This document shows positions 2,232-63,926 of a DNA stretch of 64,000 nt, piece after piece. Each line of letters begins with the position of its first letter. Position 1 is the first letter of the stretch. The notes under the pieces were generated by a model, which saw nothing but the letters and a program-made list of their open reading frames with translations, was not told where the DNA came from and ran no database searches. The position numbers and the translations under genes were made by a program. Source of the stretch: Candidatus Uhrbacteria bacterium (GTDB lineage Bacteria; Patescibacteriota; Patescibacteriia; UBA9934); assembly GCA_943359325.1 (NCBI GenBank), contig CALRHD010000002.1, positions 4,629 through 68,628 of the forward strand, read 5' to 3'.

Positions 2232-2254
2232 TGTCCACGACTCAGTTGCGGACA
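2232..2254 (+). repeat. REP family 1 hairpin, copy 1 (contains the RAYT stop codon)
   Basis: TGTCCACGACTCAGTTGCGGACA, identical to the copies at 2999, 17396 and 33634. Confidence 0.9.
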
Positions 2255-2880
2255 CCGCTCCATTCTCGCATAAACTTTTGGTAATCACTTTTTCCTTGAA
2301 ACAGATTACTGAGAATATCCATGCTGACGATAGGATCGTGTACCAGCATCAGATAGTGACTGTAGCTTGACCATGGATATGATGTGAGAAGTGCATTTGC
2401 GACATCCCAGTTTTCTATACCGCGAATCTTCCAGTCGGGGAGAAAGAGCTTGAGTGGATTGAAGTGGATATATCGCGAAATGTGTAGAAGCTGTGCGTCG
2501 CTTTTTATTGGCACAGCCTTATATTCACTTTCCCATAGCCGTCCCGTTCGCTCATTTTGACGATTAAAGTATTGAGCAAAACCAACACCCAACTTCTGCA
2601 TAAAGCGTGATACCCCATTGTCTGATACTTGTTTTAGGAGAAAATGGTAATGATTTGGCATGATCGCGTAACTCATAATTTTCACTAAAGGATTCTTGCT
2701 CGGTGATGGGCGGTGCTGGAGTCTGTGGAGAACGATTCTCCTGTCGCCCGTATCATTGAAGGCGAGCATACTGCGAATGAATCGTTCGCGATCGTTGTCG
2801 TTGCCATACGTCGATCGACGATCAACGCCGCGATTATATACATGATAGTAACCATCATTGACGATTTGTTCCTTGCGCAT
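2242..2880 (-). mobile_element. REP-associated tyrosine transposase (RAYT, Y1 HUH, IS200-like TnpA)
   Basis: YYHVYNRG, HUH motif MPNHYHFL, YFNRQNERTGRLW, catalytic Tyr motif RYIHFNP, YPWSSY; REP hairpins on both sides; start taken at ATG 2880. Confidence 0.92.
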
Positions 2881-2986
2881 AAAAAAGATGTTAAACAGTA
2901 AATAAAAATCTCCCAATGCGCTCATCATAATAGATGAACGTAGGGAGTACGTATTCATTTTCCTGCGAAGCACGACGGACGTCAAG

Positions 2987-3021
2987 TGTGGATAAGTTTG
3001 TCCACGACTCAGTTGCGGACA
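2987..3021 (+). repeat. REP family 1, copy 2, with DnaA-box leader
   Basis: TGTGGATAA-GTT-TGTCCACGACTCAGTTGCGGACA; directly abuts the radA stop codon (3022). Confidence 0.9.
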
Positions 3022-4299
3022 TTACTTCAATAACTGATCGATTGTCTTGATCGTTTTTGGCGTAATGGCGTTTTTGAGTCCGAGGCGTTCGGCCTCTTTG
3101 AGGCGGCGTTCGAGGTGGGGAACGGTGCGTACTTCGCCGCCGAGGCCGAGTTCGCCAAAAATAACCGTGTCGTCAGGGATTATTTTGTTTGACATTGCCG
3201 ACATGATCGCTGCGGCAACTGCAAGGTCAGCCGCCTTTTCTTTGACCTGCATGCCACCGACGACGTTGAGGTAGACATCTTGATCACCAACTTTGACGCC
3301 CGCACGTTTATTCACAATCGCGAGGAGCATTTGTAGCCGACTCGCGTCGTAGCCAGACGTGCGGCGCACAGGGTTTGGGAAAAGGCTGCGATCGATGAGT
3401 GCTTGAATTTCGACGAGAAACGGGCGTGAACCTTCCATGATGCAGGTGACAACAGACCCAGGGCAGGGGATGCGTTCGGCGAGAAATCGTGCTGAGGGAT
3501 TTTCTACTGTTACCATGCCATGTTCGGTCATTTCGAATACACCGACGTCGTCCGTTGCACCAAAACGATTTTTGCTACAGCGCAAAATGCGGTACGCCGT
3601 GTCGGCATCGCCTTCGAGTGTGAGAAGTGTGTCAACGAGGTGCTCGAGCGTTTTTGGCCCTGCGATTGACCCCTCTTTTGTGACTTGTCCGATGATGAGC
3701 ACGGGCACATTCGCAGTTTTTGCGTAGCTGATGAGTTCGCTCGTTGCCGCACGGACCGCTGTCGGCGTCCCCGGAAATGCATCGGCGTCCTCGACCATCA
3801 TTGTTTGTATAGAGTCAACAATGAGAATGCTCGGTGACATGGTTTTCGCTGCGGCAATAATACTGCCGATTTCGACGGCTCCCGAAAACACAATTGATTG
3901 CATACCAATACCGAGGCGTTCAAATCGCATACGCACTTGCCCCTCGCTTTCTTCGCCAGAGACGTAGTATGAAGGCGTCGACGACGACATTGCCACAGCA
4001 ATCTGCGCGACGAGCGTCGACTTTCCAATACCTGGTTCGCCTGCCAACAAAACAACAGCACCTGGAACAATGCCGCCACCGAGCACGCGGTCGAGTTCAG
4101 CAATATCTGTGGGGCGGTGAGTAATTTTGGTGAAGTTGGTGTTGTCGAGCGCGATCATCGCTGCGGGTGCAGCTTTTGCAGATGAAGTTTGGCGACCCGG
4201 CGTCGTACCACCTTCTGCAATAGTTCCCCAATTTCCGCATTCGGTGCAACGCCCCTGCCATTTGTTAAATTGACTGTCGCACTTGGTACAAGAAAACAT
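3022..4299 (-). CDS. radA: DNA repair protein RadA/Sms
   Basis: N-terminal C4 zinc finger, GEPGIGKST, KNRFG motif, Lon-like C-terminus GELGLGGEVR. Confidence 0.97.
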   Translation of the reverse strand: MFSCTKCDSQFNKWQGRCTECGNWGTIAEGGTTPGRQTSSAKAAPAAMIALDNTNFTKITHRPTDIAELDRVLGGGIVPGAVVLLAGEPGIGKSTLVAQIAVAMSSSTPSYYVSGEESEGQVRMRFERLGIGMQSIVFSGAVEIGSIIAAAKTMSPSILIVDSIQTMMVEDADAFPGTPTAVRAATSELISYAKTANVPVLIIGQVTKEGSIAGPKTLEHLVDTLLTLEGDADTAYRILRCSKNRFGATDDVGVFEMTEHGMVTVENPSARFLAERIPCPGSVVTCIMEGSRPFLVEIQALIDRSLFPNPVRRTSGYDASRLQMLLAIVNKRAGVKVGDQDVYLNVVGGMQVKEKAADLAVAAAIMSAMSNKIIPDDTVIFGELGLGGEVRTVPHLERRLKEAERLGLKNAITPKTIKTIDQLLK

Positions 4300-4319
4300 A
4301 TTTTACGCCCCCTTCACAC

Positions 4320-4354
4320 TGTGGATAACTATGTCCTCGACTCAGTTGAGGACA
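4320..4354 (+). repeat. REP family 1, copy 3 (compensatory T-A variant) with DnaA-box leader
   Basis: TGTGGATAA-CTA-TGTCCTCGACTCAGTTGAGGACA; abuts the stop codon at 4355. Confidence 0.88.
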
Positions 4355-5812
4355 CTACCGGCACATCGTTGTTGGTCTGACGCTTTCGCTGATGGGCGTG
4401 ACGCAGCAGTGGTTTTTCGCGTCCCATGTTTTGCAGAGCGCCGTCGAGTACACGGTACCGTTTGCGCCGCCAATGCGATAGCTCGAGTCGCCAAACGCCG
4501 TGTTGCACGACGACGACCCTTGCCCTGCGAGTTCAAAGTGCCACGGCTCGTTCGGAATGCGGCAAAACCCATTCGCGAACAGTGTTTGCGTCATGAGGTT
4601 TTGTAGCGTGACGTCGAATTGAAATCCTGTACCCGACCCCTCTGCCCATAAATCGGCAGCGACGTTGTTCGTATGTGTGCAATTGCGTCCGTCGCCATGG
4701 GCAACGAGCCCCGCGATAACTTCGGATTTGCTTATTCCAGAGTACGCATCGGTGAGCGTCCATTTTCCGCTCACTTTGCTTATCACTGTTTTGTCGCTTC
4801 CGTCGACATTACACGTATCAGGACTGCAGTAGCCATTTTTTGCGACACAATTCTCGTAGAAGAGCGTTGCTTGTTTTTGGATGCTACGACTTCCTGACGT
4901 TACACGAATGTTTTTCGCATTTCCAGGATTCAATGCATTACTCGCGGTGTAAAATTTTCCTGCTGCGGCCGTCAATTTCGTGAGGACATCTTTACCGATA
5001 TACGTGTCCCCTGATTTCACACTAACAATGAGATGAGTGCCCCCCCCTCCTACAAGTTGCGTGACATCGTCGCCTTGCACGATAGCAATCGCAGGCATGT
5101 AGTCTGCGAAGTCTTCGAAATCGGCAGTCGCGACGTATTCGATGGTTTTTATTTTGAGAGTTGCGAATTTTACGGTGTGCGGGTCGATGAGAAACGCAAT
5201 AGTATACGCCGACATGAGGAGGACCATGCCCGTTACTGCGTTCACCATACGGGTTTTTGCTTGCTTTACGGCGTCCGCATGACCGCGCGAAAGAATGTAT
5301 TGGAATCCACCGACCATGAGCATGATAATGGCGACGAGTGCCATGGCGACCATGAGAAACCTGTAGAGCGCATCGACATACGATGCGAGGTAGTTTATGT
5401 TCAGATTGCCGTCGGCGTCGTAGGTAAGACCGTTTGAAAAGTCGAGTCCAGGAATGGCGACGTTGAGATTGGGAATAATCGGATTGCGCTTTTCGCCACC
5501 CTCGGTGTTGTCTTCTGTTTCTGCTACTGCCTCTTGACTTGTGATTGTACCCGCACCAACAGGTGCGTCATTCCCTTCGTTGTCCGTGCAGATGAGCGAC
5601 CAGTTGACATTGCCTTTTGTTGCATATGGCGTGCACGCAGTGATGCAGCTCGACATGAGGTTGTTCGCATTTTCTTCGACGGTTCCTTCACCATTCGACA
5701 GGTCTTGATAGACACACGAACAGGTGTATGAATCCTGCATGCAATAAACCGCCGACGCATGCAGCGGTGCGAAAATGAGCAGTGCGGTGATGACGATGAG
5801 AATGCGTTTCAT
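4355..5812 (-). CDS. Secreted Cys-rich protein: TrbC/VirB2-like pilin segment fused to an M15 (VanY-like) zinc peptidase domain
   Basis: Signal peptide; pilin-like two-helix segment (IIMLMVGGFQYILSRG...AKTRMVNAVTGMVL); M15 motifs SGSRS, H-x6-D (HTNNVAAD) and EPWHFE. Confidence 0.75.
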   Translation of the reverse strand: MKRILIVITALLIFAPLHASAVYCMQDSYTCSCVYQDLSNGEGTVEENANNLMSSCITACTPYATKGNVNWSLICTDNEGNDAPVGAGTITSQEAVAETEDNTEGGEKRNPIIPNLNVAIPGLDFSNGLTYDADGNLNINYLASYVDALYRFLMVAMALVAIIMLMVGGFQYILSRGHADAVKQAKTRMVNAVTGMVLLMSAYTIAFLIDPHTVKFATLKIKTIEYVATADFEDFADYMPAIAIVQGDDVTQLVGGGGTHLIVSVKSGDTYIGKDVLTKLTAAAGKFYTASNALNPGNAKNIRVTSGSRSIQKQATLFYENCVAKNGYCSPDTCNVDGSDKTVISKVSGKWTLTDAYSGISKSEVIAGLVAHGDGRNCTHTNNVAADLWAEGSGTGFQFDVTLQNLMTQTLFANGFCRIPNEPWHFELAGQGSSSCNTAFGDSSYRIGGANGTVYSTALCKTWDAKNHCCVTPISESVRPTTMCR

Positions 5813-6456
5813 GGTGTGTGGGCTAGCGCGGAGCGAATTGCTCCTTCGATTTCCGATGCACTTACGGCGCCCGTGAAGCGCTCGTTGTTTATGAATATCG
5901 TTGGTGTTGCGGTTATTTGGAGTGTGATGCCTTCGTCGTAGCTTTTTTCAATGAGTGGGAGCGTTTCTTGTTTTTCGGTGCAACGGTTAAACGTGCGTTC
6001 GTTGAGCTTCAGCGATTGCGCGATGGACGTGTAGAGTTCACTCCCAAGTGACGCTTGGTTTGCAAAGAGGTACGAGTGGTACGGGAAAAATGCGTCTTGT
6101 TTTCCTGCGCAGCGCGCGGCTATTGCGGCGTTGAGTGCTTCAGGATGCACCGATGTGTTCGGCATGTCTTTCCACACTAATCGGATTTGATTTGGGAATT
6201 TTGCAATGACGTCGACAAGTGTATTTTCGACGTCTGCACAGGTGCCACATGAATAGTCGCCGAAGCTCACGATGGTGACAGGTGCATCGGCGGCGCCTAC
6301 ACTCGGGTCGGCAATGGTGACGGTTGGCGTGGTGATGAGTGTTGTGCTATCGGTAAATGTCACATGGTCGCCACTACCGAGCGAGAATATGAAGAATACA
6401 AAAATGATTGTGGCGACGAACACGATGGCGATAATTGCGTGCCAAAAATAGCGCAT
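5809..6456 (-). CDS. DsbA-family thioredoxin-fold protein (membrane anchored)
   Basis: N-terminal TM, GAADAPVTIVSFGDYSCGTC (CxxC), cis-Pro motif ATPTIFIN; ATGA overlap with the downstream gene. Confidence 0.9.
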   Translation of the reverse strand: MRYFWHAIIAIVFVATIIFVFFIFSLGSGDHVTFTDSTTLITTPTVTIADPSVGAADAPVTIVSFGDYSCGTCADVENTLVDVIAKFPNQIRLVWKDMPNTSVHPEALNAAIAARCAGKQDAFFPYHSYLFANQASLGSELYTSIAQSLKLNERTFNRCTEKQETLPLIEKSYDEGITLQITATPTIFINNERFTGAVSASEIEGAIRSALAHTP

Positions 6457-6460
6457 AGTG

Positions 6461-7681
6461 TTAGTGAAGTTTCATGGATAATAGTCGTCCTGACGCGTCC
6501 TGGAAATAGAGTGTATTGCCGTTTTCGCTGACAGTGAGGTTGAACATTGCAGTTTCGGCAGCCGCGTATCCGAGTGGCGTTGCTTTGCCGGATGGAAGGT
6601 CGATTTGGTAGAGCGTGTCGGGTGATGTCACTAAACTATGATTGTCGCCAGAGCCATCTGCCACTATTCGTGGCACAGCGCAATAGATCGTTGACGCCGA
6701 TGCGAACGTGCATTTCTCGACCCATGTTTCAGGGCCGAGGTGTAAGCGAATGCCACCGTGACGGTCGCCGCGGCTATCGGTGTACCAAAGCGATGGACGG
6801 TAATTGTTGCTTGCGTCGGAAACCGAGTACAAAATATTTGTGCCGTCGGGCGACCAGATCGCGCTGAAATTTGCACCAACAACGGTGACGCTTCCGACTG
6901 CATCGCCTGTTTGTCCGATGAGGTAGAGTTGGTTTTGGTCGAACGACTGCGTGTAGCCTGTCGCCGAGAATGCAACGACGTTGCCTGATGGAGAAAGATT
7001 GACGTCGACCTTGTCGTCGTTCTCGCCGAGCGCCGCGATGACGTCAGTGTGTGAACCGTCGGTCGCGGTTATGACGAGCGAGCGGTTCGACGCGTCGTTC
7101 CCAATGCTCTTTGTTGCGATCTCGCTGCCATCCTCGCTAAATGAAAAGTCTTCCCAGTGCGACGGGAGCGTCGTTTGCTTTGCCGATATGAAGTCGTACA
7201 CAACATTGCTCCCGTCTGGGAATTCTATAACCGCGGCAGTCGCGTTGTTTGCGATGGTCACGTTCTCGGCGTTCGGAAAACGCGCCTGCGACAACAGCGT
7301 GACGTCGCCATGACTGTTGATTGTGTAAAAATGACCATCGGCAGGGTCGTAATAGGCCAATGTGCCGTCGCGCGTCATTGTGGGACTCACAATTTCTGTA
7401 TTCGTAAGGAGTAGTGTCGCCGTTGCGGCTCCGCCTTCTGCAATTTGCGAAATGGGGAGTGCACCTGTGCCCGTTGTTCCATCTGCCGACGTTGGTGTTT
7501 CGCCTGTCCCTCCCGTTGCGTCGCCTGAACCCGTGAGGTTGCTCGCGGTTTCTTGCTCTTCGGGTGTCGTGGTGACGCTTGGCGCTTTGCGTAAAAATGC
7601 GAAGTAGAGCGCGATGCCAATAAGCACAGCGACACAGAGAAACAATGCAAGGCGGAAGAGTATTTTTATACGGTCAGACAT
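6461..7681 (-). CDS. Membrane-anchored beta-propeller (TolB/WD40-like) protein
   Basis: N-terminal TM, Thr/Gly-rich linker, repeated FSEDG/LSPSG/WSPDG blade motifs. Confidence 0.7.
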   Translation of the reverse strand: MSDRIKILFRLALFLCVAVLIGIALYFAFLRKAPSVTTTPEEQETASNLTGSGDATGGTGETPTSADGTTGTGALPISQIAEGGAATATLLLTNTEIVSPTMTRDGTLAYYDPADGHFYTINSHGDVTLLSQARFPNAENVTIANNATAAVIEFPDGSNVVYDFISAKQTTLPSHWEDFSFSEDGSEIATKSIGNDASNRSLVITATDGSHTDVIAALGENDDKVDVNLSPSGNVVAFSATGYTQSFDQNQLYLIGQTGDAVGSVTVVGANFSAIWSPDGTNILYSVSDASNNYRPSLWYTDSRGDRHGGIRLHLGPETWVEKCTFASASTIYCAVPRIVADGSGDNHSLVTSPDTLYQIDLPSGKATPLGYAAAETAMFNLTVSENGNTLYFQDASGRLLSMKLH

Positions 7682-7702
7682 AGATTCAATCATTGCTCTT
7701 GG

Positions 7703-8452
7703 CTATCTGCCAAATGTGATTTCTGCCCATGCCCGAATGCCAAGCATGGGATTTGTGACAATTTCATAGCCGATAACGATGAACATGACGAATACGCCGA
7801 GGATAAAAAACACCCAGAAATACAAGAAAACGGCGTCGACGAGTTGACCCCAGCCGTGCATGCTTCGAAGATCGAATTTTTGCGGCAACATTCTGCCAAG
7901 CGTGCCGCCGTTGATTTTTTCATTGAACGCGGGGAATATCGTTAACAGTAATTGATACATGCTGCCGAGCCAGCCGAATGCGAGCATGACGCCGCCGTCT
8001 GCGGGCAGCATATCAATCGTACCGCTCCCCTGAAACACGGAACCCCACACGGCTTCGTTTGCGAATTGCTCACCTTCGCTTCGTTCGCTCGCTCCTGTGA
8101 CGGTGACGCTACTACGTCCCGCTACTCGTCTGTTTGCAGGCATCTGAAGTTCATAGCTCGCTTCGTTATCTTCTGACGACCTTGCAGGAAATTCGGGAAG
8201 CCGTTGTCGTGTTGCCGACGCGATGCGTGCACGTTGTTGCGCTGCGGCGAATCGGTTTCCTTGCGGCAGCGTTGCTTCCGCGATCATAAATTTTTGATTG
8301 TTCGCGGGGTACTCTTGATTGTTCGCAGACGCGGGGGCTTCACTAGTTTCTGACAATCGCGCTCTTTGGAGCACCACGCGATTACGCAAAAATTCCCCCC
8401 GTGCAATAGCAGGATCGAACGCGGGGAGTCCTCGTGTTGCGGCCAAAGCCAT
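7703..8452 (-). CDS. Hypothetical protein, disordered N-terminus and C-terminal TM helices
   Basis: 249-aa ORF co-oriented with its neighbours; extended -10 TGATATACT at 8471-8463. Confidence 0.6.
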   Translation of the reverse strand: MALAATRGLPAFDPAIARGEFLRNRVVLQRARLSETSEAPASANNQEYPANNQKFMIAEATLPQGNRFAAAQQRARIASATRQRLPEFPARSSEDNEASYELQMPANRRVAGRSSVTVTGASERSEGEQFANEAVWGSVFQGSGTIDMLPADGGVMLAFGWLGSMYQLLLTIFPAFNEKINGGTLGRMLPQKFDLRSMHGWGQLVDAVFLYFWVFFILGVFVMFIVIGYEIVTNPMLGIRAWAEITFGR

Positions 8453-8484
8453 ATCGCGTTTCAGTATATCACAAAACGCCCTGC

Positions 8485-10989
8485 TCAGGCGTTTTGTTTT
8501 ACACGTTTTTTGTGCATGCGCGTTACGCGGAATATTCCATTGCTTTCCGTGACGACAACCTCGCGCGGTAGTTTTGATGTGGTAAGCATGAGGTCGGCAA
8601 TGGGGTGTTCGATGTGTTCTTCAATGATGCGACGAACGTCACGAGCACCGTATTTTTCGGTGACGGTGTGCGCAACGGCGTTGGCGATGTGTTTCGTGGC
8701 GCACAATGTGACGCCAAGTGTGGCAAGGCGTTTCGCAGTATCGGCAAGCGCGATGCGTGCGATGAGGGTGAAGTCATCGAATTCGAGTGGGCGGAATAGG
8801 CAGGTGTGGTCGATACGATTGAGAAGCTCGGGGCGGAAATGGTCTTCGAGGAGCAAACGAATATCGTCGCGGAATTGCGCACTCGATACGGTTTGGTCGC
8901 TCACAAAACCGAGGCCATGTTGGTGGAAGCGTTCGCGCCCTGCATTTGTGGTCATGACGATAACTGCATTGCGGAAAGAGACGCTGCGCCCCGTTGCGTC
9001 GGTCAATACGCCGTCGTCAAGAATTTGGAGGAGCAAGTTATGGACGTCGCCATGTGCTTTTTCGAGTTCATCGAAGAGAATAACCGAGTGAGGGCGTGCG
9101 AGAACGGCATCGGTGAGTTTTGCGCCTTCGCGAAACCCGACGTAGCCCGCAGGAGAGCCGATGAGTTTGCTCACGGAAAAACTTTCTCCGAATTCGGACA
9201 TGTCGAAACGCACGAGCGCGTTCGGGTCGTCGAAGACTTCGGCAGCAATCGCGCGTGCAAGTTCGGTTTTTCCCACGCCCGATGGCCCGACGAAGAGGAA
9301 CGACGCGAGCGGACGTTTGGGCTGCGCCAATCCGAGGCGGGCGCGTTGCAGTGCTGCGGCAACACGAGTCACGGCGTCGTGTTGACCAACAACGCGCGCC
9401 GAAAGTCGCTCGGCAAGCGTACGGAGTGCGGCGGATTCATTCGCGGAAAGTCGTGACACGGGAATGCCGGTCATGTGTGCGACGGCAGCATTGATACGTG
9501 CACGGTCGAGCACAAGCGGTGCGCTCGTTGGTGCCTGTTTCTTGAGCGCGCCGTGTTCTTTTCGGAGTGCAGTCTCTTCGGTTTTGCAGGCAAGTGCTTC
9601 GGAAAAGCGTTCTTCAAAAACGGCCGCAGCTTTTCGCATGCGCAGTGTGTCGAGACATGCGGCAATGTCACGAAGTTGTGCGGCATGTTGCGCATGGCGT
9701 TTACCGTACACTGCTGCCGATCCTGCTTCATCTAAAATGTCGATTGCCTTGTCGGGAAAATGTTTTCCGTGCATGTAGCGTTCAGAAAGTGTGAGCGCAG
9801 CCTCGATCGCGTCTTTCGTAAAACGTACGCCGTGGTACTTTTCGTATGCGGGCTGAATGCCAAAAAGTATCGTGCGCGTTTCGGCGAGTGTTGGTTCGTT
9901 GACGGTAATTTTTTGGAATCGTCGTTCGAGCGCAGCGTCGGGTTCTATTTCTTTTTTATATTCGGCAGGCGTTGTTGCGCCAATGCAGCGCAATTCACCA
10001 CGCGCAAGTGCAGGCTTCAAAATGTTTGCCGCGTCGAGCGATCCCGATGCCGCGCCTGCACCAACCACGGTATGCATTTCGTCGATAAACAAAACGATGT
10101 CGGGATGATCGTAGATTTCGTCCAAGATATGCTGGAGTCGCTGCTCAAAGTCGCCACGATACATCGTTCCCGCGACAAGTGTCGCCATATCGAGGCGGAA
10201 AATGCGTTTGTTTTTGAGCGCGTCAGGAACCTTACCGTCGACGATTGCTTTTGCAAGCCCTTCCACGATCGCGGTTTTACCAACGCCTGTTTCGCCTACA
10301 AGCACAGGATTATTTTTTGTTCGACGTAACAAAACGTGCGCAAGCCGTGCGACTTCGTGTTCGCGACCAATGAGCGGGTCGATGCGTGCGGCTACTTCGC
10401 GTGTCGTTAGTTCGGTTGTAAAAAAGTCGAGCGCAGGAGTTTTCTTCGTTTCCACGTTGCACTCTTTGCATTCGGTGTCGTCGGAGTGCGTGTGCGGTGT
10501 GGTTTCTTCGTCGACGTGAACGTTCGGGAACGACGTCGTCGTGCGAAACACCGCCTGCAAATTTTGTACGAGATTTCTTTCGCGTATGCCGCTGTCGTGG
10601 AAAAATGCACGGATATTTTTCTGTGCGAGCTGCAAAAGTCCTGCGAGCAAGTGTTCGGTGCCGACGTGGTGGTGTTCGTGCATGCTTGCCGTCAACACCG
10701 CTTTTTCTATCGCGGTTTTCGCGTCATTCGACAGGAGCGGCGTTTTGTCATTTACGGTGAGTGGAGAAAATGAAGTCTTTCCTGCAGCCACTTTTGCGAA
10801 TATACGCAATGCCTCTTCCTTCACTCCCGCCTTTGCAAGAACCTCCGCGCCAATACTGCCGCGTTCCGTGCCAAGCGACCACAATAATTCTCGCAGCCCG
10901 ATTTCTTCGCCGCCATGCTCCACGACAAGACACAACGCTCGTGTGAGCACACTTTTTAAGTGCGATGTAAATTTATCCGTCAATTCCAT
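8485..10989 (-). CDS. clpC: ATP-dependent Clp protease ATPase subunit ClpC
   Basis: Clp-N repeats, two AAA+ modules (GETGVGKT; GPSGVGKT), [21 protein letters not shown]; start at ATG 10989. Confidence 0.93.
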
Positions 10990-11078
10990 ATGTAAATTCT
11001 CTCTACGTCTTGTCGCCAATACAGACTGATGTACTATGTGCATGCTACGTTTTTCAGTCATGACTGTCAAAGGAAATT

Positions 11079-11840: not shown

Positions 11841-11883
11841 TGCAATTGCCCCTGCTGCATGGGGGGTGTAGAATGGGATAACT

Positions 11884-14541: not shown

Positions 14542-14677
14542 ATTTCTCCCACATAACATACTCCGTTCCTTGTGAAGCCCCGCAGCCGCAGTCCGTACAC
14601 AAGGCCTCGGCTTACGCCGGCCACGGACTGACGGGCGGCGCCTCACGACGTCACGAAGTATGTTATGTGGGAGAAAT
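14542..14677. repeat. Palindromic element family 2, copy A
   Basis: 21-bp perfect terminal inverted repeat (ATTTCTCCCACATAACATACT) around a conserved core CAGTCCGT...GGCTTACGCC...ACGGACTG. Confidence 0.9.
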
Positions 14678-17383: not shown

Positions 17384-17418
17384 AGTGGATAACTATGTCC
17401 ACGACTCAGTTGCGGACA
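17384..17418 (+). repeat. REP family 1, copy 4, upstream of dnaE
   Basis: AGTGGATAA-CTA-TGTCCACGACTCAGTTGCGGACA. Confidence 0.9.
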
Positions 17419-33621: not shown

Positions 33622-33656
33622 TGTGGATAACTATGTCCACGACTCAGTTGCGGACA
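33622..33656 (+). repeat. REP family 1, copy 5, between convergent thyX and dcd
   Basis: TGTGGATAA-CTA-TGTCCACGACTCAGTTGCGGACA; abuts the dcd stop codon (33657). Confidence 0.9.
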
Positions 33657-42851: not shown

Positions 42852-42888
42852 TATGGATAACTCTGTCCACGACTCAGTCGTGGACAGA
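42852..42888 (+). repeat. REP family 1, copy 6 (perfect stem), inside the ABC operon
   Basis: TATGGATAA-C-TCTGTCCACGACT-C-AGTCGTGGACAGA. Confidence 0.88.
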
Positions 42889-53604: not shown

Positions 53605-53825
53605 GATTGACGTCCTCATGTGATTCCGCTACTCTTTCTGCACTTATCCCACTCTGCCCCCAGGGCTTTGTTTGGGATAACCCCCAACAAAGTGCCCAAC
53701 GAAGCCGAAGGCGTAGTGGTACGAAGTGGGGTTTATTCATCTTTCAGATCCGAATTTCGCTGTCGGCCCTTGCCCTGTTTACGGGGTTCCGTCAGTCCGG
53801 ATCGTTGTAAAAAAGGATTTACATT

Positions 53826-54659: not shown

Positions 54660-54660
54660 T

Positions 54661-55257: not shown

Positions 55258-55268
55258 CAAAAAATAAC

Positions 55269-55296
55269 AAGCGGAGCCGCGGTGGTTCCGCTTTTG
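55269..55296 (+). terminator. Intrinsic terminator after tsf
   Basis: AAGCGGAGCC-GCGGT-GGTTCCGCTT-TTG. Confidence 0.7.
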
Positions 55297-55330
55297 TGTT
55301 ATACTCACAGCAGAAATTTTCATGGGGGCT

Positions 55331-56329: not shown

Positions 56330-56333
56330 CTAT

Positions 56334-56828
56334 ATGCGAACAGAATCTTTTTTCGACCGTCTTGGAAGCACCGCACAGCAACGTTTTTTTGGAGTCAGTT
56401 TTATTGCATTACGCATTGCACTCGGCGGCATGTTCTTTTTTTCAGGGCTTGCAAAGTTCGGCGAGTGGAGCGCGGAGAGTTATTTACTGAAAGCATCGGG
56501 TCCTTTTGCTGCGTGGTTCCAGTCGCTTGCGGGGAATGGTGTTGTTGACGCACTGAACGCGTGGGGCATGGTGCTCATTGGCCTTGCGCTCGTTATTGGC
56601 TTCTTGGTTCGGCCTGCGGCGATTGCAGGTATCGCAATGATGACACTTTACTATTTTGCACATTTTGTGGAGAACACGGCCTATGGCTACATCGACCAGC
56701 ACGTCATTTTTGCCCTCGTATTTTTCCTATTCGCTGCAGGTGGTGCGGGTAATGTGTTTGGACTAAACGCACTTGCCCTCCGTTCGTTGCGCCACCCGAA
56801 CGCATTTGCAAAATATATGTTGGGGTAG
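56334..56828 (+). CDS. DoxX-family membrane protein
   Basis: LRIALG.MF..SG..K, IGLALVIG...R.A, four TMs, AGNVFGLN. Confidence 0.85.
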   Translation: MRTESFFDRLGSTAQQRFFGVSFIALRIALGGMFFFSGLAKFGEWSAESYLLKASGPFAAWFQSLAGNGVVDALNAWGMVLIGLALVIGFLVRPAAIAGIAMMTLYYFAHFVENTAYGYIDQHVIFALVFFLFAAGGAGNVFGLNALALRSLRHPNAFAKYMLG

Positions 56829-56837
56829 TGGTCTACT

Positions 56838-58082
56838 ATGGAACATCGTCCCCGCGTCGTTATTATCGGTGGAGGGTTTGGGGGTTTGCGCACAGCGTTG
56901 TTGTTGTCGCGTCAGCGCATGCCACTCGAAATCATTCTTGTTGATGCGAACGACGTGCATGTGTACACGCCGTGGTTGTACGAAGTTGCGTCGGGGCGTA
57001 CGGATGGTGTTTCCGAGCGTCATCGCCGACGCTTGCGCCACTCGGCGAGTTTTCCGTTTATCGATATTCTGCGCGGCACGAATGTGATGTTTCGTAAGGC
57101 AGTTTTGAAGAACGTCGACGCAGAACGCCGTCACGTACTTTTTGCGGACGGGAGCACACTTGCATTCGACTCACTCGTGCTTGCAGTAGGGAGTGAATCC
57201 GCAATATTTGGCATTCCCGGACTTGAGCGTCACGCCTTGCAACTCAAAACGGTTACAGATGCTATTGCCATTGAAAACAATATTACCTCACAACTCAAGA
57301 ATGACAACGCTCTCCATATTTTCGTCGCAGGTGCAGGTTCGAGTGGCGTTGAACTTGTTGCTGAGTTGGCAACAATGGTCGGTGCGCGGCAACGGCGCGG
57401 GTCGTTGCCAAAGGGTGAGGTGAAATTTTCGCTTGTCGACGCGGCGAGCAGCGTGCTTTCGATGTGTAGTCACGGTGTGCAGGTTGCAACGCTTCGGCGC
57501 TTGCAAAAACTCGGCATCACCGTGTTGCTCGACACGATGGTAACGAAAGTGGCAGAGGACATGGTGACGCTTGCACCGAGGCAGCGCTTGCCACTTTCTT
57601 CGTCGCGCGAAGTGCCGTACACCTGTTTTGTGTGGTGCGGCGGTGTTGCGCCGAACCATGTGACGTTGGCGTTGCCTTTCACGAAGGACGCCCGCGGCCG
57701 CATTGCCGTTGATGTGTCGTTCGAAATATTGGGACATGCAAACATTTTTGCACTGGGAGATGCGGTTGCGATGGCGGATTTCGACCTTCCCGCCACCGCA
57801 CAGGCGGCAGATGAAACCGCAAAGACTGTTGCGGAAAATGTCGTGCGTGGTTTGCGGCGTCGCGCACTTAAAAAATATGTGCCGCCACGTCGGTGGCCAT
57901 TTGTTGTCGCAGTCGGCGGTGCGTATGGTGTTGCTGATGTGTTTGGATTGACGCTGACAGGTTGGCCTGCGTATGCACTTCGTCGTCTTGCAGATTTGCG
58001 GTACTGCGTTCGTACATTTCGATTTTTTACTGCGCTTCGTGTGTGGCGATTGCGTATGAAATTTTATGGCAAAAACGATTAG
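56838..58082 (+). CDS. NAD(P)/FAD-dependent oxidoreductase, type II NADH dehydrogenase-like
   Basis: GGGFGG, YTPWLYEVASG, FGIPG, GAGSSGVELVAE, FALGD, ATAQAA. Confidence 0.85.
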   Translation: MEHRPRVVIIGGGFGGLRTALLLSRQRMPLEIILVDANDVHVYTPWLYEVASGRTDGVSERHRRRLRHSASFPFIDILRGTNVMFRKAVLKNVDAERRHVLFADGSTLAFDSLVLAVGSESAIFGIPGLERHALQLKTVTDAIAIENNITSQLKNDNALHIFVAGAGSSGVELVAELATMVGARQRRGSLPKGEVKFSLVDAASSVLSMCSHGVQVATLRRLQKLGITVLLDTMVTKVAEDMVTLAPRQRLPLSSSREVPYTCFVWCGGVAPNHVTLALPFTKDARGRIAVDVSFEILGHANIFALGDAVAMADFDLPATAQAADETAKTVAENVVRGLRRRALKKYVPPRRWPFVVAVGGAYGVADVFGLTLTGWPAYALRRLADLRYCVRTFRFFTALRVWRLRMKFYGKND

Positions 58083-59133
58083 TGGACTTCGCACGTGGAC
58101 TGCCGCCGACATTCCTACAGGATGCCGTGTGCTTGTGCGTGTTGATGCGAATGTCACCATAAAAAATGGTCGAGCAGATATTTCAGCGAGCGGAAGAATT
58201 GCGCGGAGCATTCCCGAAATAAAAAAACTGCTCAAACGTCATGCGCGGATTATTTTAATGACGCATCTCGGAAGTGATACGGAATCAACTGCGCCGATCG
58301 CAAAAGCTTTCTCACAATTGCTTGATCGCCCTGTTCTTCTTGCGAAGGACGTTGTCGGGAAAGACGCGTCACAACTTTCCGCACTGCTTGAGCCGGGTAG
58401 CGTCATGATGCTCGAGAATTTGCGTAGCGATAGAGGGGAGGAAGAGAACGATGTCGCGTTTGCAAGACATCTTGCCCTCCTCGGCGACGTATATGTGAAC
58501 AACGCATTTGGTGTATGTCACCGAAAACATGCGTCTGTTGTTGCAATGACGAAGTGTCTCCCGAGTTTTGCGGGAGAGCTATTGGTGCGTGAAGTCAGTG
58601 AGTTGACGCAGCCGATCGCAAAACCATTTGTTCTTGTTGTCGGTGGGGTGAAAATAGATACGAAACTCCCGTTGCTTGAAAAGCTTGGTGTGCATGCTTC
58701 CTGTGTTGTCGTTGGCAGCGCGCTTGCCGACGAACTTGCGCATCATCCAAAACTTTCAAAACACGTTCACAGCCTTCTCGGTGATAAACTTCAATTGCCT
58801 ATCGATCTTCGCCGTGATGCGGATCATCATGCATTCGACGTTGGAGCGAAAACTGAAAAAATGTTTGCAACGTGGCTTGAGGGCGCTGCGACAATTTTGT
58901 GGAACGGCCCCGTTGGTGTCGTTGAGCACGCGGCTGGCCGTCATGGTACTACGGCGCTCGCCAATGCGATCATGGCGTCGTCCGCCCGCACTATTGTTGG
59001 CGGCGGCGATACGGTTGCATTCCTCGAGTCAATGAAGATAACAAAACAATTCTCGTGGGTCTCAACAGGCGGCGGCGCGATGCTTGCTCTTTTGGCTGGT
59101 GAAAAACTTCCGGGGCTTGAGGTGTTACGGTGA
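58066..59133 (+). CDS. pgk: Phosphoglycerate kinase (compact)
   Basis: VRVDANV, THLG, LENLR, NNAFGVCHR, WNGPVG, GGGDT, STGGGA. Confidence 0.93.
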   Translation: MAKTISGLRTWTAADIPTGCRVLVRVDANVTIKNGRADISASGRIARSIPEIKKLLKRHARIILMTHLGSDTESTAPIAKAFSQLLDRPVLLAKDVVGKDASQLSALLEPGSVMMLENLRSDRGEEENDVAFARHLALLGDVYVNNAFGVCHRKHASVVAMTKCLPSFAGELLVREVSELTQPIAKPFVLVVGGVKIDTKLPLLEKLGVHASCVVVGSALADELAHHPKLSKHVHSLLGDKLQLPIDLRRDADHHAFDVGAKTEKMFATWLEGAATILWNGPVGVVEHAAGRHGTTALANAIMASSARTIVGGGDTVAFLESMKITKQFSWVSTGGGAMLALLAGEKLPGLEVLR

Positions 59134-59200
59134 AAGATTTTTCTGCACGGCCGCTTTGTTTTCTGCTATACTTCAGACAATTGCTTTTCATATTTATTTT

Positions 59201-59980
59201 ATGGCAACAAACGGGGGAGGTTTTTGGCCGCGATGGGACGAGCATAAATTATTTTTTGTATTGCTCGCGATATTGATGGTGTATGCAACGGTGCTCGTAT
59301 TTGTACACATTGAGAAGACGATTGTTGAAGTACGTGGCGTGGGGTTTGCCGATCAAACTGCGCCAACGATTTCGGTGACCGGTGAAGGTAAAGCAAGTGC
59401 GGTGCCCGACATTGCAAAAGTCGATATGATCGTGACGAATAAGGCGGCAAACACGTCGGCGGCACAAAGTGTAAACACCACGGTTATGAATGGGCTTATT
59501 GCGGCTATGCGGAATGCGGGGGTTGCGGAGAAGGATTTGAAAACGTCATCGTATAGTGTGTATCCCGTGTACGATTATGACGTGAGTCCTGCAACGATTA
59601 CCGGCTACGAAGCGTCGCAAACATTGAGTGTGACAATCCGCGATACTGAAAAATCGGGTGCAATTTTGGAAGCGGCAGGCAGCAATGGTGCGACGCAGAT
59701 TGGGAGTCTTCGTATGGAGGTTGACGATGAAACTGACGTGAAGAGCGAAGCGCGAAAGGCGGCGATTGCGGATGCACGCGCTGAGGCCGAGAGTATCGCA
59801 GCGGCGATGGATGCACGTCTTGGACGTGTCGTAAGTTATTACGAGTCAGAAGGTGGAAGTATGGGCTTTTATTACGAAGGGGCGATGTTGTCCGATAGCA
59901 TGAAAGTGGGCGCACCCGACATTGCAGAAGGGGAAAACGAAACGAACATTACGGTGACAATGACATACGCCATTCAGTAA
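59201..59980 (+). CDS. SIMPL (DUF541) domain protein
   Basis: TISVTGEGKASAVPD, ARKAAIADAR. Confidence 0.9.
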   Translation: MATNGGGFWPRWDEHKLFFVLLAILMVYATVLVFVHIEKTIVEVRGVGFADQTAPTISVTGEGKASAVPDIAKVDMIVTNKAANTSAAQSVNTTVMNGLIAAMRNAGVAEKDLKTSSYSVYPVYDYDVSPATITGYEASQTLSVTIRDTEKSGAILEAAGSNGATQIGSLRMEVDDETDVKSEARKAAIADARAEAESIAAAMDARLGRVVSYYESEGGSMGFYYEGAMLSDSMKVGAPDIAEGENETNITVTMTYAIQ

Positions 59981-59988
59981 ATCTGCAA

Positions 59989-60123
59989 CTCTCCCATCAC
60001 AACATACTCCGCTCCTTGTGAAGCCCCGCAGCCGTAGTCCGTACAGCAAGGCCTCGGCTTACGCCGGCCACGGACTGACGGGCGGTGCTACACTGCGTCG
60101 CAAAGTATGTTATGACGGGAGAG
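59989..60123. repeat. Palindromic element family 2, copy C
   Basis: Outer arms CTCTCCCATCACAACATACT/AGTATGTTATGACGGGAGAG around the conserved core. Confidence 0.9.
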
Positions 60124-60146
60124 ATCGGAGAAAATTAGAAGGAGTT

Positions 60147-61415
60147 ATGAAAGAACGTATTGACGTTATTCATGCACACGAAATTCTCGATTCGCGTGGA
60201 AACCCCACGTTGAACGTGACGGTGATGCTCAAAAACGGCCTGCGAGGGAGTGCATCGGTGCCGAGTGGAGCGTCGACGGGAGTTCATGAGGCGCTTGAAT
60301 TGCGAGACGGCGACATGTCGCGGTACCGTGGCAAAGGTGTGCGAAAGGCAGTAAAGAATGTAAATGTGACGATTGCAAAAGCGCTGCGTGGCATGGACGT
60401 TTTTGACGTTCGAGCGCTCGACGACGCAATGCGTATTATCGATGGTACGGAGAATAAGCATGTGCTTGGCGCGAACGCCATTCTCGGCGTGTCGCTTGCG
60501 TGCGCACATGCGGGTGCACGGAGGGCGAACACGCCGCTTTACGAACACATTCGCAATGTGTTCGGGTTACGCTACAACGGGTTTACGCTGCCAACGCCGT
60601 TCATGAACGTGTTTAACGGCGGCCTGCATGCCGACACGAATCTCGACATGCAGGAATTTATTATTATTCCCCACGGATTTAAAAAGTATTCTCGAAAAGT
60701 ACAGGCGGGGAGTGAGATTTTTCATGCGCTTGGTGACGTGCTGCACGCTGATGGGCTCGACACGGATGTGGGGAACGAAGGCGGCTACGCACCAAACGTC
60801 GGCAAAACAGAAGTTGCGCTCGAGTATTTGGCAAAGGCGACAAAAAAAGCAAAATATAAACTTGGTGGTGAAATTGGATTCGGCATCGACGTTGCAGCGA
60901 GTGAGTTCTATGACGCCAAAAAGGACAGGTATATTTTACGGACAGACAGACGGAAATTGAATGGGGGAGAGATGATTGATTTGTATGAGCAGTGGCTGAA
61001 GAAATATCCACTCATGTCGGTTGAAGACGGGCTCGACCAAGACGCATGGGTGGACTGGGCGATGCTCACCAAGCGTCTTGGCAAAAAAATGCTGCTCGTC
61101 GGGGATGATCTTTTTGTAACGAATGTAGAACGAGTGAAAATGGGACTTTCGCAAAAAGTTGCGAACGCCGTGCTCATAAAGCCAAACCAGATTGGTACGC
61201 TCTCGGAAACGATCGATACTATTCTGCTTGCGCAGAAGCACAAATATAAAATAGTTATCTCGCACCGTTCAGGAGAAACAAGCGACACAACGATTGCCGA
61301 CCTCGCCGTTGCGGTGAACGCGCAGTACATCAAGTCGGGCGCACCTTCGCGTTCGGAGCGGCTTTCGAAATATAATCGACTGCTTGAAATTGAGGAGGAG
61401 CTAGATGGAATTTGA
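60147..61415 (+). CDS. eno: Enolase
   Basis: EILDSRGNPT, VPSGASTG, GDDLFVTN, KPNQIG, SHRSGET; SD GAAGGAG before ATG 60147. Confidence 0.98.
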   Translation: MKERIDVIHAHEILDSRGNPTLNVTVMLKNGLRGSASVPSGASTGVHEALELRDGDMSRYRGKGVRKAVKNVNVTIAKALRGMDVFDVRALDDAMRIIDGTENKHVLGANAILGVSLACAHAGARRANTPLYEHIRNVFGLRYNGFTLPTPFMNVFNGGLHADTNLDMQEFIIIPHGFKKYSRKVQAGSEIFHALGDVLHADGLDTDVGNEGGYAPNVGKTEVALEYLAKATKKAKYKLGGEIGFGIDVAASEFYDAKKDRYILRTDRRKLNGGEMIDLYEQWLKKYPLMSVEDGLDQDAWVDWAMLTKRLGKKMLLVGDDLFVTNVERVKMGLSQKVANAVLIKPNQIGTLSETIDTILLAQKHKYKIVISHRSGETSDTTIADLAVAVNAQYIKSGAPSRSERLSKYNRLLEIEEELDGI

Positions 61416-61416
61416 C

Positions 61417-61504
61417 GCCCCCGCAGCCGCAGTCCGTACGGCAAGGCCTCGGCTTACGCCGGCCACGGACTGACGGGCGGTGCCGAACGACGTCGCAAAG
61501 CATG
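61417..61504. repeat. Palindromic element family 2, copy D (left arm missing)
   Basis: About 85 nt identical to copy B except for one base. Confidence 0.9.
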
Positions 61505-61541
61505 TAGTATAGGGATATACACCATGCTAGTCGCTCGATCG

Positions 61542-62765
61542 CTACGCGGCGAGTTCGTGATCGTAATGCCAGCCGCTTGTGCGTTCGAGGAGCATGGTAC
61601 CTGCGGTTGTGGCACGCTGCCAAGCATGTTGGCCGAAGCGTTTTTGTATGGTGTTGAGTGCGCCAAGTACAGAATGCATTTTTTCGGTTTTGCGAAAGAG
61701 TGATGGGGGTACACTATTTTTTTGCAGTGCGCTGACGGTAACGCCGATGAGTCGAACACCGCGTGCATAGTCGATGTTTGGCAGCAAAATACTCCACGCA
61801 CTTTTTGCAATGCCAAGCCCGTCACGCAAGGGTTCCTTGAATAGTTTGTCGCCGCCCATCTGTGAAAAGTCCCCGTAACGAACGAATGCGTTCACGCGAA
61901 AGCCGACAACATAGCCGTGCTGCATTCGTGAGGCGACGCGGTCGGAAAGTGCTAAGAGATTTTTCCATACGTCATGTTTGGTTAGGAGATTGGCAGGAAA
62001 AGTGTACGAATGACCAATAGACTTTGCAGGGGCGTCGACGGCGAGCGGTGTGTTGTCTTTTCCATGTGCGGCATTTGAGAGCCATGCACCATGACTCTTG
62101 AACCGCGCAACGAGTTGTTCTCGTGAAATTGCGCGAAGTGTGGCGACTGACGTTGCACCCATTGTTTCGAGTGCGCGTTCGGTTTGCCTGCCAATGCCAC
62201 AAAACTCTTTGAGCGGCCGCGTGGCAACAAACGCTGCAACATTTTCTGGTAGTACAACGGTGAGGCCATTTGGTTTTACTGATTCGCTCGCAAGTTTTGC
62301 AACAAGTTTGTTTGGCGCAACGCCGATGGACGCCGTGCACGCACTTCCACACGCCGCTTTGAGTTCCGCACGAATCGTCTGCGCCAGAAGTGTCGCGCCG
62401 AAATAATCTTGCGCGCTCTGTGTAACGTCGAGAAAGACTTCGTCGGTGCTGAATTGTTCAAGCTGATCCGCATATTTTGTACAGATAGTAATAAGACGAT
62501 TGGTAATGTCGCTATATTTTTGAGGGTCTCCGGGGAGAATAATGAGTTCGGGGCATATTTTTTTCGCTTCCCATGTGGACATTGCAGTTTTGACACCGCG
62601 CGCTTTTGCTTCTCGTGATGCCGTCGCCACTACAGAGCGCGTCGACCCTCCCAATCCCTTACCCTTTCCACCAACCGCAATTGCTTTCCCGCGTAGAAAC
62701 GGATTCGCCTGCTGCTCGACGCTCGCAAAGTAGCTATTGAAATCGATGTGCATGAGTATGGGCAT
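61542..62765 (-). CDS. dinB: Y-family DNA polymerase IV
   Basis: HIDFNSYFASVEQ, SREAKARG, STDEVFLD, NKLVAKLAS, KPNG, little-finger domain. Confidence 0.93.
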   Translation of the reverse strand: MPILMHIDFNSYFASVEQQANPFLRGKAIAVGGKGKGLGGSTRSVVATASREAKARGVKTAMSTWEAKKICPELIILPGDPQKYSDITNRLITICTKYADQLEQFSTDEVFLDVTQSAQDYFGATLLAQTIRAELKAACGSACTASIGVAPNKLVAKLASESVKPNGLTVVLPENVAAFVATRPLKEFCGIGRQTERALETMGATSVATLRAISREQLVARFKSHGAWLSNAAHGKDNTPLAVDAPAKSIGHSYTFPANLLTKHDVWKNLLALSDRVASRMQHGYVVGFRVNAFVRYGDFSQMGGDKLFKEPLRDGLGIAKSAWSILLPNIDYARGVRLIGVTVSALQKNSVPPSLFRKTEKMHSVLGALNTIQKRFGQHAWQRATTAGTMLLERTSGWHYDHELAA

Positions 62766-62778
62766 ATGGAGAGTGCTT

Positions 62779-63024
62779 TTAATCCGTATAGATCTCCACC
62801 AGTCTCCATTCGAGTGTCTCGGTGTCGAAGCGTAGCTTCATGAAATTAGTTTTGTCGGACACGGAGAAGTAAAAAATGCGTTTTGCACCTTCAAGAGCGC
62901 CGTGCACCAAATTGACGCATTGCAATGGGTACCGACGGTTACTCCACCGTACTTCGCGAGGGCGAATACGGTGGCCAAAGAAATCCACCGTCACCTCGAT
63001 GGGGTCGTTCATGTAGGTATGCAT
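62779..63024 (-). CDS. Small beta-strand protein (DUF6504-like) in the lexA-dinB cassette
   Basis: P..V.W..RRY...F.V.......L.FD.....W.L pattern; between lexA and dinB. Confidence 0.7.
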   Translation of the reverse strand: MHTYMNDPIEVTVDFFGHRIRPREVRWSNRRYPLQCVNLVHGALEGAKRIFYFSVSDKTNFMKLRFDTETLEWRLVEIYTD

Positions 63025-63205
63025 AAGTGTAAAAAATGTATTTTTATGTATGCAATAGTCCCCTCAATTTTTGCCTCATCATGCGTCGATTGAAGAGCAG
63101 ACGGAACGTCGAACGGAGGTTTTGATTGCGACGCGCAGAAGCAAGAGTGCGATAACCGAGCGTCACATTGTAGTGACGAGCAATGAGTGATGTCATATTT
63201 CGTAG

Positions 63206-63826
63206 TTAAAATTTTCTTATTACTGCGCGGACGATGCCCTGAATGTTTATGTCGCCTTTAATAATGATAGGTTTCATGGTGCTGTTTGCAGGCTGGAGGC
63301 GAATGTGATTTTTTTCGCGGTAGAAACGTTTGAGTGTTGCATAAGCGTTGTCGAGGAGCGCGACAACGATGTCGCCGTTTTTGGGAGAATGTTTGCGTTC
63401 AACGACGACCATGTCGCCGTCAAAGATGCCATCTTCGATCATGGATCTGCCCTTGACTTTAAGTACGTACGAATTCATGGCGTCGACCACATAATTTGCA
63501 GGAACGGCGATGGCTTCGTTTTCTTCGATTGCTTCGATGGGCTCGCCTGCGGTGATGAGTCCTGCAAGCGGGAGCATGATGGCAAGCGGCGACAGCGGTT
63601 CAGTTTCGACGACCTCGATGCTGCGTGCGCTGCCGTTCTCGCCCGTATTGATAATGCCCTTTTCACACAGCGCCTTAATGTGTTGGTGAACCGTTGCGGG
63701 CGAACACAGCCCGAGTTCTTTTGCGATTTCGCGGTACGACGGAGTGTACCCATTTGCGCGAACAAATGTTGCCACGCAGTCGAGCACCTGACGTTGTTTT
63801 TTCGTAAGGGGAGGAAGCGGACTCAT
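63206..63826 (-). CDS. lexA: SOS repressor LexA
   Basis: LTKKQ..PSYREI wHTH, Ala-Gly cleavage site (ITAGEP), catalytic Ser (GRSM) and Lys (TLKRF). Confidence 0.96.
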   Translation of the reverse strand: MSPLPPLTKKQRQVLDCVATFVRANGYTPSYREIAKELGLCSPATVHQHIKALCEKGIINTGENGSARSIEVVETEPLSPLAIMLPLAGLITAGEPIEAIEENEAIAVPANYVVDAMNSYVLKVKGRSMIEDGIFDGDMVVVERKHSPKNGDIVVALLDNAYATLKRFYREKNHIRLQPANSTMKPIIIKGDINIQGIVRAVIRKF

Positions 63827-63832
63827 ATGTAC

Positions 63833-63874
63833 GTTCGTTATCTGTTCGTATTATCTCGCGAACAAAAACCGAAC
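63833..63874. promoter_or_regulatory. Two putative LexA operators, GTTCG-N6-GTTCG direct repeats in opposite orientation
   Basis: GTTCG-TTATCT-GTTCG (63833-63848) and CGAAC-AAAAAC-CGAAC (63859-63874) just upstream of lexA. Confidence 0.75.
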
Positions 63875-63886
63875 GCAAGAGCAAGG

Positions 63887-63926
63887 TGGGGATAAGTATG
63901 TCCACGACTGAGTCGTGGACATACTT
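63887..63926 (+). repeat. REP family 1, copy 7 (16-bp perfect stem), upstream of lexA
   Basis: TGGGGAT-AAGTATGTCCACGACT-G-AGTCGTGGACATACTT. Confidence 0.88.

Follow-up and report, generated by a model that had tools for sequence, protein, structure and literature searches.

What does a short hairpin that brackets a transposase gene do beside a DnaA box, and how did the two come to stand together next to genes of DNA replication and repair? The question is raised by a 64,000-nt window from a Candidatus Uhrbacteria bacterium (assembly GCA_943359325.1, contig CALRHD010000002.1, positions 4,629 to 68,628; G000:C2:4629-68628 in our numbering), in which a 23-nt hairpin, here called family A, occurs seven times. 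We analyzed this window together with its genome (G000; 790,734 bp, 24 contigs, 51% GC, 94% complete, 795 genes from a simple gene caller of our own) and a comparison set of 68 genomes of one family, G000 included. A close relative, X5, came from a sequencing run of a separate study, and the remaining relatives are distant. Gene classes and some gene names were taken from Pfam or from sequence. We found that the hairpin is a repetitive extragenic palindromic (REP)-type repeat, likely copied by the REP-associated tyrosine transposase (RAYT)-like enzyme that it brackets. In the account that we favor, with somewhat better than even confidence, this hairpin both docks at existing DnaA boxes and carries boxes to new sites.

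All seven hairpins reported in the initial annotation were recovered (starts 2232, 2999, 4332, 17396, 33634, 42864 and 63899), and no family A match appeared in 100 dinucleotide shuffles of the window. Six are preceded, at exactly 3 nt, by the 9-mer, which is perfect at 2987, 4320 and 33622 and has one mismatch at 17384, 42852 and 63887; the copy at 2232 has no box at that spacing. Since the copies at 2232, 2999 and 4332 share one locus, the window holds five separate loci, not seven. The proposed genome-wide count gave 21 family A copies, 15 with a box (0-1 mismatch to the 9-mer; 10 perfect and 5 with one mismatch, all at exactly 3 nt) and 6 without. A second family, B, has the length, loop and foot of family A with another stem, and its 6 copies are all boxed at 3 nt. 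A 0-1 mismatch box at that spacing is met by chance at 57 of 91,834 intergenic positions (0.06%).

The variable stem position described earlier was seen across the 21 copies at pair 6 (A.C 15, A-T 5, T-A 1), and the description could be refined, as pair 8 varies too (G.T 17, G-C 4). In the copy at 63899 the loop is flipped relative to the box. Among the 27 copies of families A and B, the three letters preceding the stem are GTA in 12, CTA in 8 and other in 7, followed by T, and none has a GTAG or GTGG tetranucleotide at the foot. Family A copies are single, with no inverted pairs of the REPIN layout, apart from one tandem and one same-orientation pair separated by 111 nt. The tandem lies at C3:79465-79517, where the hairpin is duplicated with a period of 30 nt, and a comparable, partial duplication follows the hairpin of another family, P, at uvrB in genome G003.

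The gene between the first two hairpins (2242-2880, minus strand) encodes a RAYT-like Y1 HUH transposase of 212 aa with H77-x-H79 and Y137-x-H-x-NP (Pfam Y1_Tnp, E 1e-9). Two of the 21 family A copies flank it, as had been noted: the unboxed copy at 2232-2254 (plus strand) lies at the 3' end of the gene and contains its stop codon, and the copy at 2999-3021 (plus strand) directly follows the radA stop codon. NHYH and YIHFNP motifs are present, H77, H79 and Y137 are invariant across 25 aligned relatives, and Pfam found no C-terminal helix-turn-helix (HTH) in the protein. The best PDB fold match of its structure model (predicted local distance difference test score 93) was 4ER8, E. coli TnpA-REP (E 5e-7), followed by the ISDra2 and IS608 transposases. 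Six Y1 genes were found in G000, every one bracketed by its own repeat, and the paralogues are 25-42% identical to that of the window. They lie at C14:9866, C3:49878, C5:43346, C5:21164 and C19:6125, with about 9, 3, 22, at most 26 and 9 repeat sites; the gene at C5:21164 encodes 285 aa, has GGGGTCAG inverted ends and resembles a genuine TIRYT.

The system resembles E. coli TnpA-REP with its REPtron and bacterial interspersed mosaic elements (4ER8; PMC3333891, PMC8266576, in the parts available) in its Y1 HUH fold, in a gene bracketed by dispersed short hairpins with mismatched stems, in several genes per genome with their own repeats, and possibly in long residence at one site. It differs by the missing GTAG foot tag, by single hairpins instead of inverted doublets, by a score below the NCBIfam cut-off and by a 9-mer identical to a DnaA box at fixed spacing. 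Within TnpA-Y1 class 2 of Quentin et al. 2018 (PMC6006769), the NHYH, WE, YIHxNP and SS motifs fit, and subclasses 2.1 (TIRYT) and 2.6/2.8 were considered. Unlike subclass 2.1, the protein has 212 aa without an HTH tail, and instead of GGGGWSAS terminal inverted repeats its flanks are same-orientation hairpins, which PMC6006769 did not find for 2.1; that paper also reports no DnaA-box likeness for TIRYT ends. The catalytic fold is that of IS200/IS605 elements (IS608, ISDra2), whose insertion, polar and on the 3' side of a target motif, would agree with one-sided hairpins; unlike them, the gene is not multi-copy, and Y-x-x-x-NP stands in place of Y-x-x-x-Q.

Family A is narrowly distributed. 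At up to 3 mismatches, only 3 of the 67 remaining genomes have it, in the form of cousins or single matches; exact matches in JGI metagenome contigs and Rfam matches to the window numbered 0 each. A loose pattern found 25 stretches in GTDB, of which only those of the G052 type were useful and the others were treated as chance. G052 has a 57% identical transposase orthologue at the same radA-recG site and a cousin hairpin with the foot and loop of family A, its box lying 10 nt away; a metagenome protein scan found no close transposase relative beyond this type. Among the radA loci of 29 relatives (some incomplete), this orthologue was found in G052, a different Y1 gene in G004 and none in the other 27. 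In X5, recG is joined to radA without the transposase gene, either hairpin or the box.

We then considered what the 9-mer is. It fits the DnaA-box consensus TT[AT]TNCACA as given in PMC6006769, from which the lexA variant departs at one position. Two perfect boxes lie upstream of dnaA, where the GC skew changes sign. The DnaA of G000 retains RDHTT, which we take to be its domain IV recognition motif. The 9-mers of this host thus likely bind DnaA, as far as sequence can tell. The 9-mer is also the commonest intergenic 9-mer, with 32 perfect sites, 15 of them at A or B hairpins and 17 at other places, where base composition would predict 0.8; in coding DNA the count is 7 and the prediction 4.8. 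In total, 16 of the 39 perfect boxes are linked to families A and B. It had been suggested as a counter-test that the 9-mer might be equally common away from hairpins and at no fixed spacing; the 17 intergenic sites bear out the first part, but the spacing is real.

A reader other than DnaA, either the transposase using the 9-mer as a recognition tag or another promoter factor, is improbable. GGATA is invariant among the intergenic boxed copies, and in a predicted alternative fold the family A box can pair with the 5' arm (-3.8 kcal/mol), both of which would suit such a reader. However, 6 of 21 copies, including the one at the 3' end of the transposase gene, have no 0-1 mismatch box, the G052 box is 10 nt away, and the 9-mer is present in the dnaA origin region and in genomes without a Y1 gene, besides the RDHTT motif that DnaA retains. 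A role of the arm as a guide pairing with the box is plausible for family A and for family P of G003, and not for the other docked families. On contig C4, clusters of 2-4 boxes without hairpins stand at distances of about 8 kb and 22 kb from dnaA (L044:2530-2620, L046:1540-1590). A replication-strand bias was considered and rejected: the box is on the G-rich strand in 20 of 27 G000 copies, but likewise in 13 of 17 hairpin-less intergenic boxes, and in 14 of 25 copies in G003.

To reconstruct the order of events, the orthologous loci in relatives were compared, and both empty and filled sites were found, with two histories. In the first, the box is older than the hairpin. At lexA (box 63887-63895, family A hairpin against it at 63899-63921, plus strand), 30 loci were compared, lexA being present in all 68 genomes. 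In 27 of them a -35-like motif is preceded, at about 8-11 nt, by a box that is either perfect or of a single recurring variant; the remaining three are one off-position match, one incomplete locus and one without a box. The box is present in 9 of 10 loci from genus g2, of which 19 genomes yielded no Y1 gene. Repeat hairpins stand 1-3 nt from this box in four species, family A in G000 and three different ones in G001, G003 and G004, and the site-specific box variant is kept while the hairpin differs between species. Two GTTC-N7-GTTC direct repeats (63833-63874, unstranded), separate from the hairpin and conserved in relatives, are likely LexA operators of the direct-repeat type, given their sequence. 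Such repeats overlap the lexA promoter across the family (L427-L456), and related ones are found at uvrB (L487-L516).

A similar history was found at uvrB, where 17 of 30 loci have a 0-1 mismatch box within 210 nt upstream, one of these boxes being off position and another reversed. In G001 the box is followed directly by the promoter, and G000 has 24 extra letters right after the box and GT, namely the hairpin plus one base; other hairpins occupy the place in G003, G004 and G005. The lexA and uvrB box, found also without a hairpin or a Y1 gene, is by these alignments an older host promoter element. Upstream of dnaE (17384-17418, plus strand; one-mismatch box and hairpin), the box is also present in G006, with a cousin hairpin, and in G008, with none, and is absent from this position in the remaining 12 of 14. 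Where G000 has a one-mismatch box and hairpin flanked by two ABC-2 permease genes (42852-42886, plus strand), G003 has no box.

Further support for docking came from wider counts. Sites of families A and B were boxed in G003 in 5 of 15 testable cases versus 10 of 102 plain gaps (p 0.02). Hairpins sit 3' of the box in 12 versus 5 cases in G000 (of 44) and 29 versus 3 in G003 (of 79). Six copies lie in frame inside genes: ksgA, a comF-like gene, recJ, a deacylase gene (twice) and an unknown gene (L033:1724, L034:2396, L035:2219, L038:1985 and 2096, L041:2038). They often replace codons of a variable loop, not add them, and for two of them the left junction in the orthologues already holds the box's first half.

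In the second history, the box came with the hairpin. Upstream of radA (4320-4354, plus strand; box 4320-4328, hairpin 4332-4354), no box within 130 nt was found in 29 relatives, which indicates a joint gain, and X5 lacks 55 letters (4307-4361) comprising box, hairpin and outer flank. A family B copy after mreB is missing together with its box in X5 and G003. Because a close relative lacks both at radA and mreB, the box there most likely arrived with the hairpin. The X5 comparison covers copies other than those at lexA, xseA, pyrH and rplL, near which its contigs end. In the gap between the thyX and dcd stop codons (33622-33656, plus strand), which is not a promoter, a box was present in 0 of 8 relatives, and the box upstream of xseA was found in 3 of 30 loci, every one with a hairpin. 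Several newly gained boxes have unrelated genes as neighbors or stand in gaps flanked by two stop codons, a position in which boxes were seen only next to repeats, and linked boxes face gene starts in no fixed orientation.

The initial annotation left open whether the transposase spreads or targets DnaA sites, and we observed both: targeting at lexA and uvrB, and spreading at radA, mreB, thyX and xseA. It also proposed that replication and repair genes are wired to DnaA, a claim that is mostly reversed because the lexA and uvrB boxes are older than the hairpin and occur in a genus in which no Y1 gene was found. That the palindromes are operators, for example of LexA, or plain terminators unrelated to the transposase is very improbable. 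Several copies do have SOS-type genes as neighbors or directly follow a stop codon, but among the 68 genomes family A occurs only in G000, cousins apart, copies stand in frame inside genes, and the LexA-like direct repeats are conserved separately. Hairpins and transposase are also missing together in X5, and the empty sites largely refute this explanation.

Where would the copied box come from? The transposase gene has a perfect box within its inferred promoter (2987-2995, minus strand), followed one base later by a -35-like TTGAC (2981-2985, minus strand), an arrangement shared by G052. Of 85 Y1 loci, which include close relatives and so are not independent, 27 have a perfect box in the 200 nt upstream, in most cases oriented toward the gene; among G000 control genes, 9 of 277 have one. 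In a quick RAYT tree (83 rows; L003, L149 and one duplicate left out), boxed Y1 promoters are found in several clades. The boxed share of dispersed copies tracks the gap at the transposase-proximal copy, with 14 of 15 at 1 nt, 15 of 21 at 3 nt and 5 of 18 at mostly 3-10 nt; two families without a box at that copy had 0 of 12 and 0 of 15 boxed, all these counts covering the retrieved part of each family.

These numbers fit pure hitch-hiking, in which the box of the transposase promoter, 3 nt from the source hairpin, is copied passively and the coincidence with old boxes reflects gaps upstream of promoters that tolerate inserts. The boxes found between stop codons only beside repeats fit it as well. 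We nevertheless consider it unlikely: at lexA the box variant is kept while the hairpin changes, and at uvrB four species have hairpins a few letters from the same old box, with G001 empty. In family P of G003, 22 of 23 copies are boxed regardless of inner-stem divergence. At sites common to G003 and G004, box and outer arms are kept, and the inner stem differs by changes of the whole subfamily, a pattern that fits the overwriting of resident hairpins. Thirteen G004 stretches were compared, 10 shared with G003, 1 with another family, 1 with no recognizable hairpin and 1 with neither box nor hairpin; no clean empty site of family P between G003 and G004 was among them. A purine-rich flank outside the box, found alike at one family A copy, at family B copies and at a box without a hairpin (L035:1700-1740, L036:360-400, L046:1570-1610), suggests that longer flanks are copied too.

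Returning to docking and dispersal by the transposase, old boxes at lexA and uvrB together with joint gains elsewhere imply that the enzyme likely both aims at and spreads these sites. TnpA-REP of E. coli cleaves single-stranded DNA at a short motif to either side of the hairpin, also distantly, and transfers strands; capture of flanks was proposed (PMC3333891, in the portion available). For a group 3 enzyme, the foot motif was shown to choose the cut site (PMC8266576, likewise in part). By analogy, the enzyme would bind the folded single strand, then cut and rejoin at a short motif just 3' of the TGTGGATAA strand of the box, giving polar insertion. Boxes and partial boxes would be preferred landing places, and a resident hairpin could be overwritten. 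Since such enzymes also cut away from the hairpin, a box 1-3 nt off would often be copied along. The choice of landing place might be set by sequence, by DnaA occupancy or by mere tolerance.

Several observations weigh against this account. No Y1 gene belonging to family B was found in this 94% complete assembly, the NCBIfam RAYT model NF047646 scores the transposase at 52.4 bits with a cut-off of 80, and a sequence search of PDB with the transposase found no match. Hairpins by the lexA box in G062 and G066, which have no Y1 gene, look like ordinary terminators, so the place may simply tolerate hairpins. The uvrB sequences of G000 and G001 agree over 11+7 letters only, and G000 has about 12 additional letters before the promoter. 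By its sequence, the dnaE cousin hairpin in G006 looks like one old insertion that diverged, and the cases of different hairpins at the same site could in part have the same origin. No box-like flank was seen at the recJ in-gene copy. Docked hairpins vary in sequence and spacing (1-10 nt), so that a single cut motif is not readable, and the enrichment of gene classes beside them is modest, resting on small numbers.

That enrichment had been suggested by the neighbors in the window. The neighbors recG, radA, dnaE, thyX, dcd and lexA were borne out by annotation, but the window itself is rich in DNA-metabolism genes, including additional dinB-type and DHFR genes. Outside it, 4 of 12 family A loci touch a replication or repair gene (xseA, uvrB, an RNase_H_2-type exonuclease gene, and inside recJ); the others involve pyrH, rplL, rsmI, ksgA, the comF-like gene, the deacylase and unknown genes. 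In a control of 45 gaps, drawn at random from 172 plain gaps of at least 40 nt in about 370 kb outside the window, 2 counted strictly and 6 broadly (one-sided Fisher p ~0.015 against 4 of 12). One of 6 family B loci lies beside such a gene, as do 6 of 25 loci in G003 (background taken from G000), four of them at the same sites as in G000. For the unboxed families C, D and E, 0 of 16 loci scanned with Pfam within retrieved stretches did so; genes that we presume from their N-termini to be topA-, uvrD- and uvrA-like stand at unscanned loci of these families, and the contrast was therefore not used. A lean toward repair genes thus held up outside the window, modestly and in small numbers. It is best explained by hairpins docking at existing DnaA-box promoters of the host, from which the lean would be inherited. 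Intragenic REPs in repair genes (Di Nocera et al. 2013) resemble our copies in lying in frame and in their replication and repair lean; unlike here, the available part of that paper (PMC3733652) reports no DnaA box.

We also examined whether the boxes act on the host. Set against the anatomy of datA in E. coli, the boxes here are single and dispersed: a second box lies within 100 nt for only 5 of 22 hairpin-linked boxes, and the datA-like sink proposed earlier is unsupported because most boxes stand alone; no IHF site was seen either, though no search was aimed at one. What is shared with datA and with chromosomal DnaA titration in E. coli is the presence of extra DnaA boxes outside the origin (PMC12371093, as far as available). 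Across the 68 genomes, box density rises with Y1 number (rho 0.60; medians 13 versus 25 per Mb), as it does across 15 genera (rho 0.63) and within genera (r 0.48, permutation p 0.001). However, a reversed-motif control correlates within genera as well (r 0.37). A clear exception is G054, which has 47 perfect boxes and no Y1 match at E 1e-5 and may have either another box-bearing repeat or a lost transposase.

This trend, the large A/B-linked share of perfect boxes and the persistence of boxes, which stay perfect or become the lexA-type variant while inner stems change, could be read as host benefit, with the system kept by selection because its added sites would put repair genes under DnaA control or titrate DnaA. 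Titration by chromosomal sites and control of uvrB by DnaA and LexA were shown in E. coli (PMC12371093, PMC6015884, both in part). We regard this explanation as improbable, about as much so as a reader other than DnaA. Besides the control and G054, boxes are mostly single, the orientation of new ones relative to gene starts is not fixed, two synonymous positions differ in one in-gene box, and genomes without Y1 genes manage with few boxes. The new boxes are probably mostly tolerated passengers, which is compatible with an effect on free DnaA.

A bolder version of docking, which we hold to be doubtful, is that patescibacterial RAYTs are DnaA-site-directed editors that write hairpins on DnaA-bound promoters and, by copying boxes outward, set the number of DnaA sites per chromosome, a number about three times higher in lineages with many of these genes. 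It is equally tentative that the promoters concerned are those of lexA, uvrB, dnaE and the RAYT gene itself, with hairpins being written and overwritten there. If true, domesticated RAYTs would act at the level of the host, tuning the initiation of replication and the response to damage.

If the favored account holds, this REP/RAYT system differs from those known in that its hairpins both dock at and disperse DnaA-box sequences. No description of DnaA-box-bearing RAYT repeats was found in the literature, mostly in open journals, and supplement tables of PMC6006769 and PMC3733652 could hold similar cases. The system bears on the spread of REPs, on the nature of the moving unit and on the reason why RAYT genes persist in their hosts. 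From the natural pairs of filled and empty sites, the moving unit can be proposed to be one 24-nt hairpin, alone or with a flank, and its target the stretch immediately 3' of a DnaA box. The comparison also points to a conserved DnaA-box element at the lexA and uvrB promoters across the family. In these small genomes, DnaA-box counts and predictions of origins and regulons are inflated by mobile repeats, as the A/B-linked share here illustrates.

Three minor features were also observed. A leader hairpin lies between the promoter and the start of the transposase gene (2910-2948, minus strand), with similar ones in the G052 orthologue and many relatives; a CCCC...GGGG leader hairpin followed by A/T-rich letters stands just before the start codons of uvrB and RAYT-like genes and is possibly a shared control element of the 5' untranslated region. 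Between pheS and pheT (14555-14620), the summed contig depth was very high in every run compared, which we read as a repeat common to many organisms. Finally, positions 4355-5812 encode a Cys-rich protein with a type IV secretion system pilin-type domain, and this gene lies directly upstream of radA in nearly all relatives compared.

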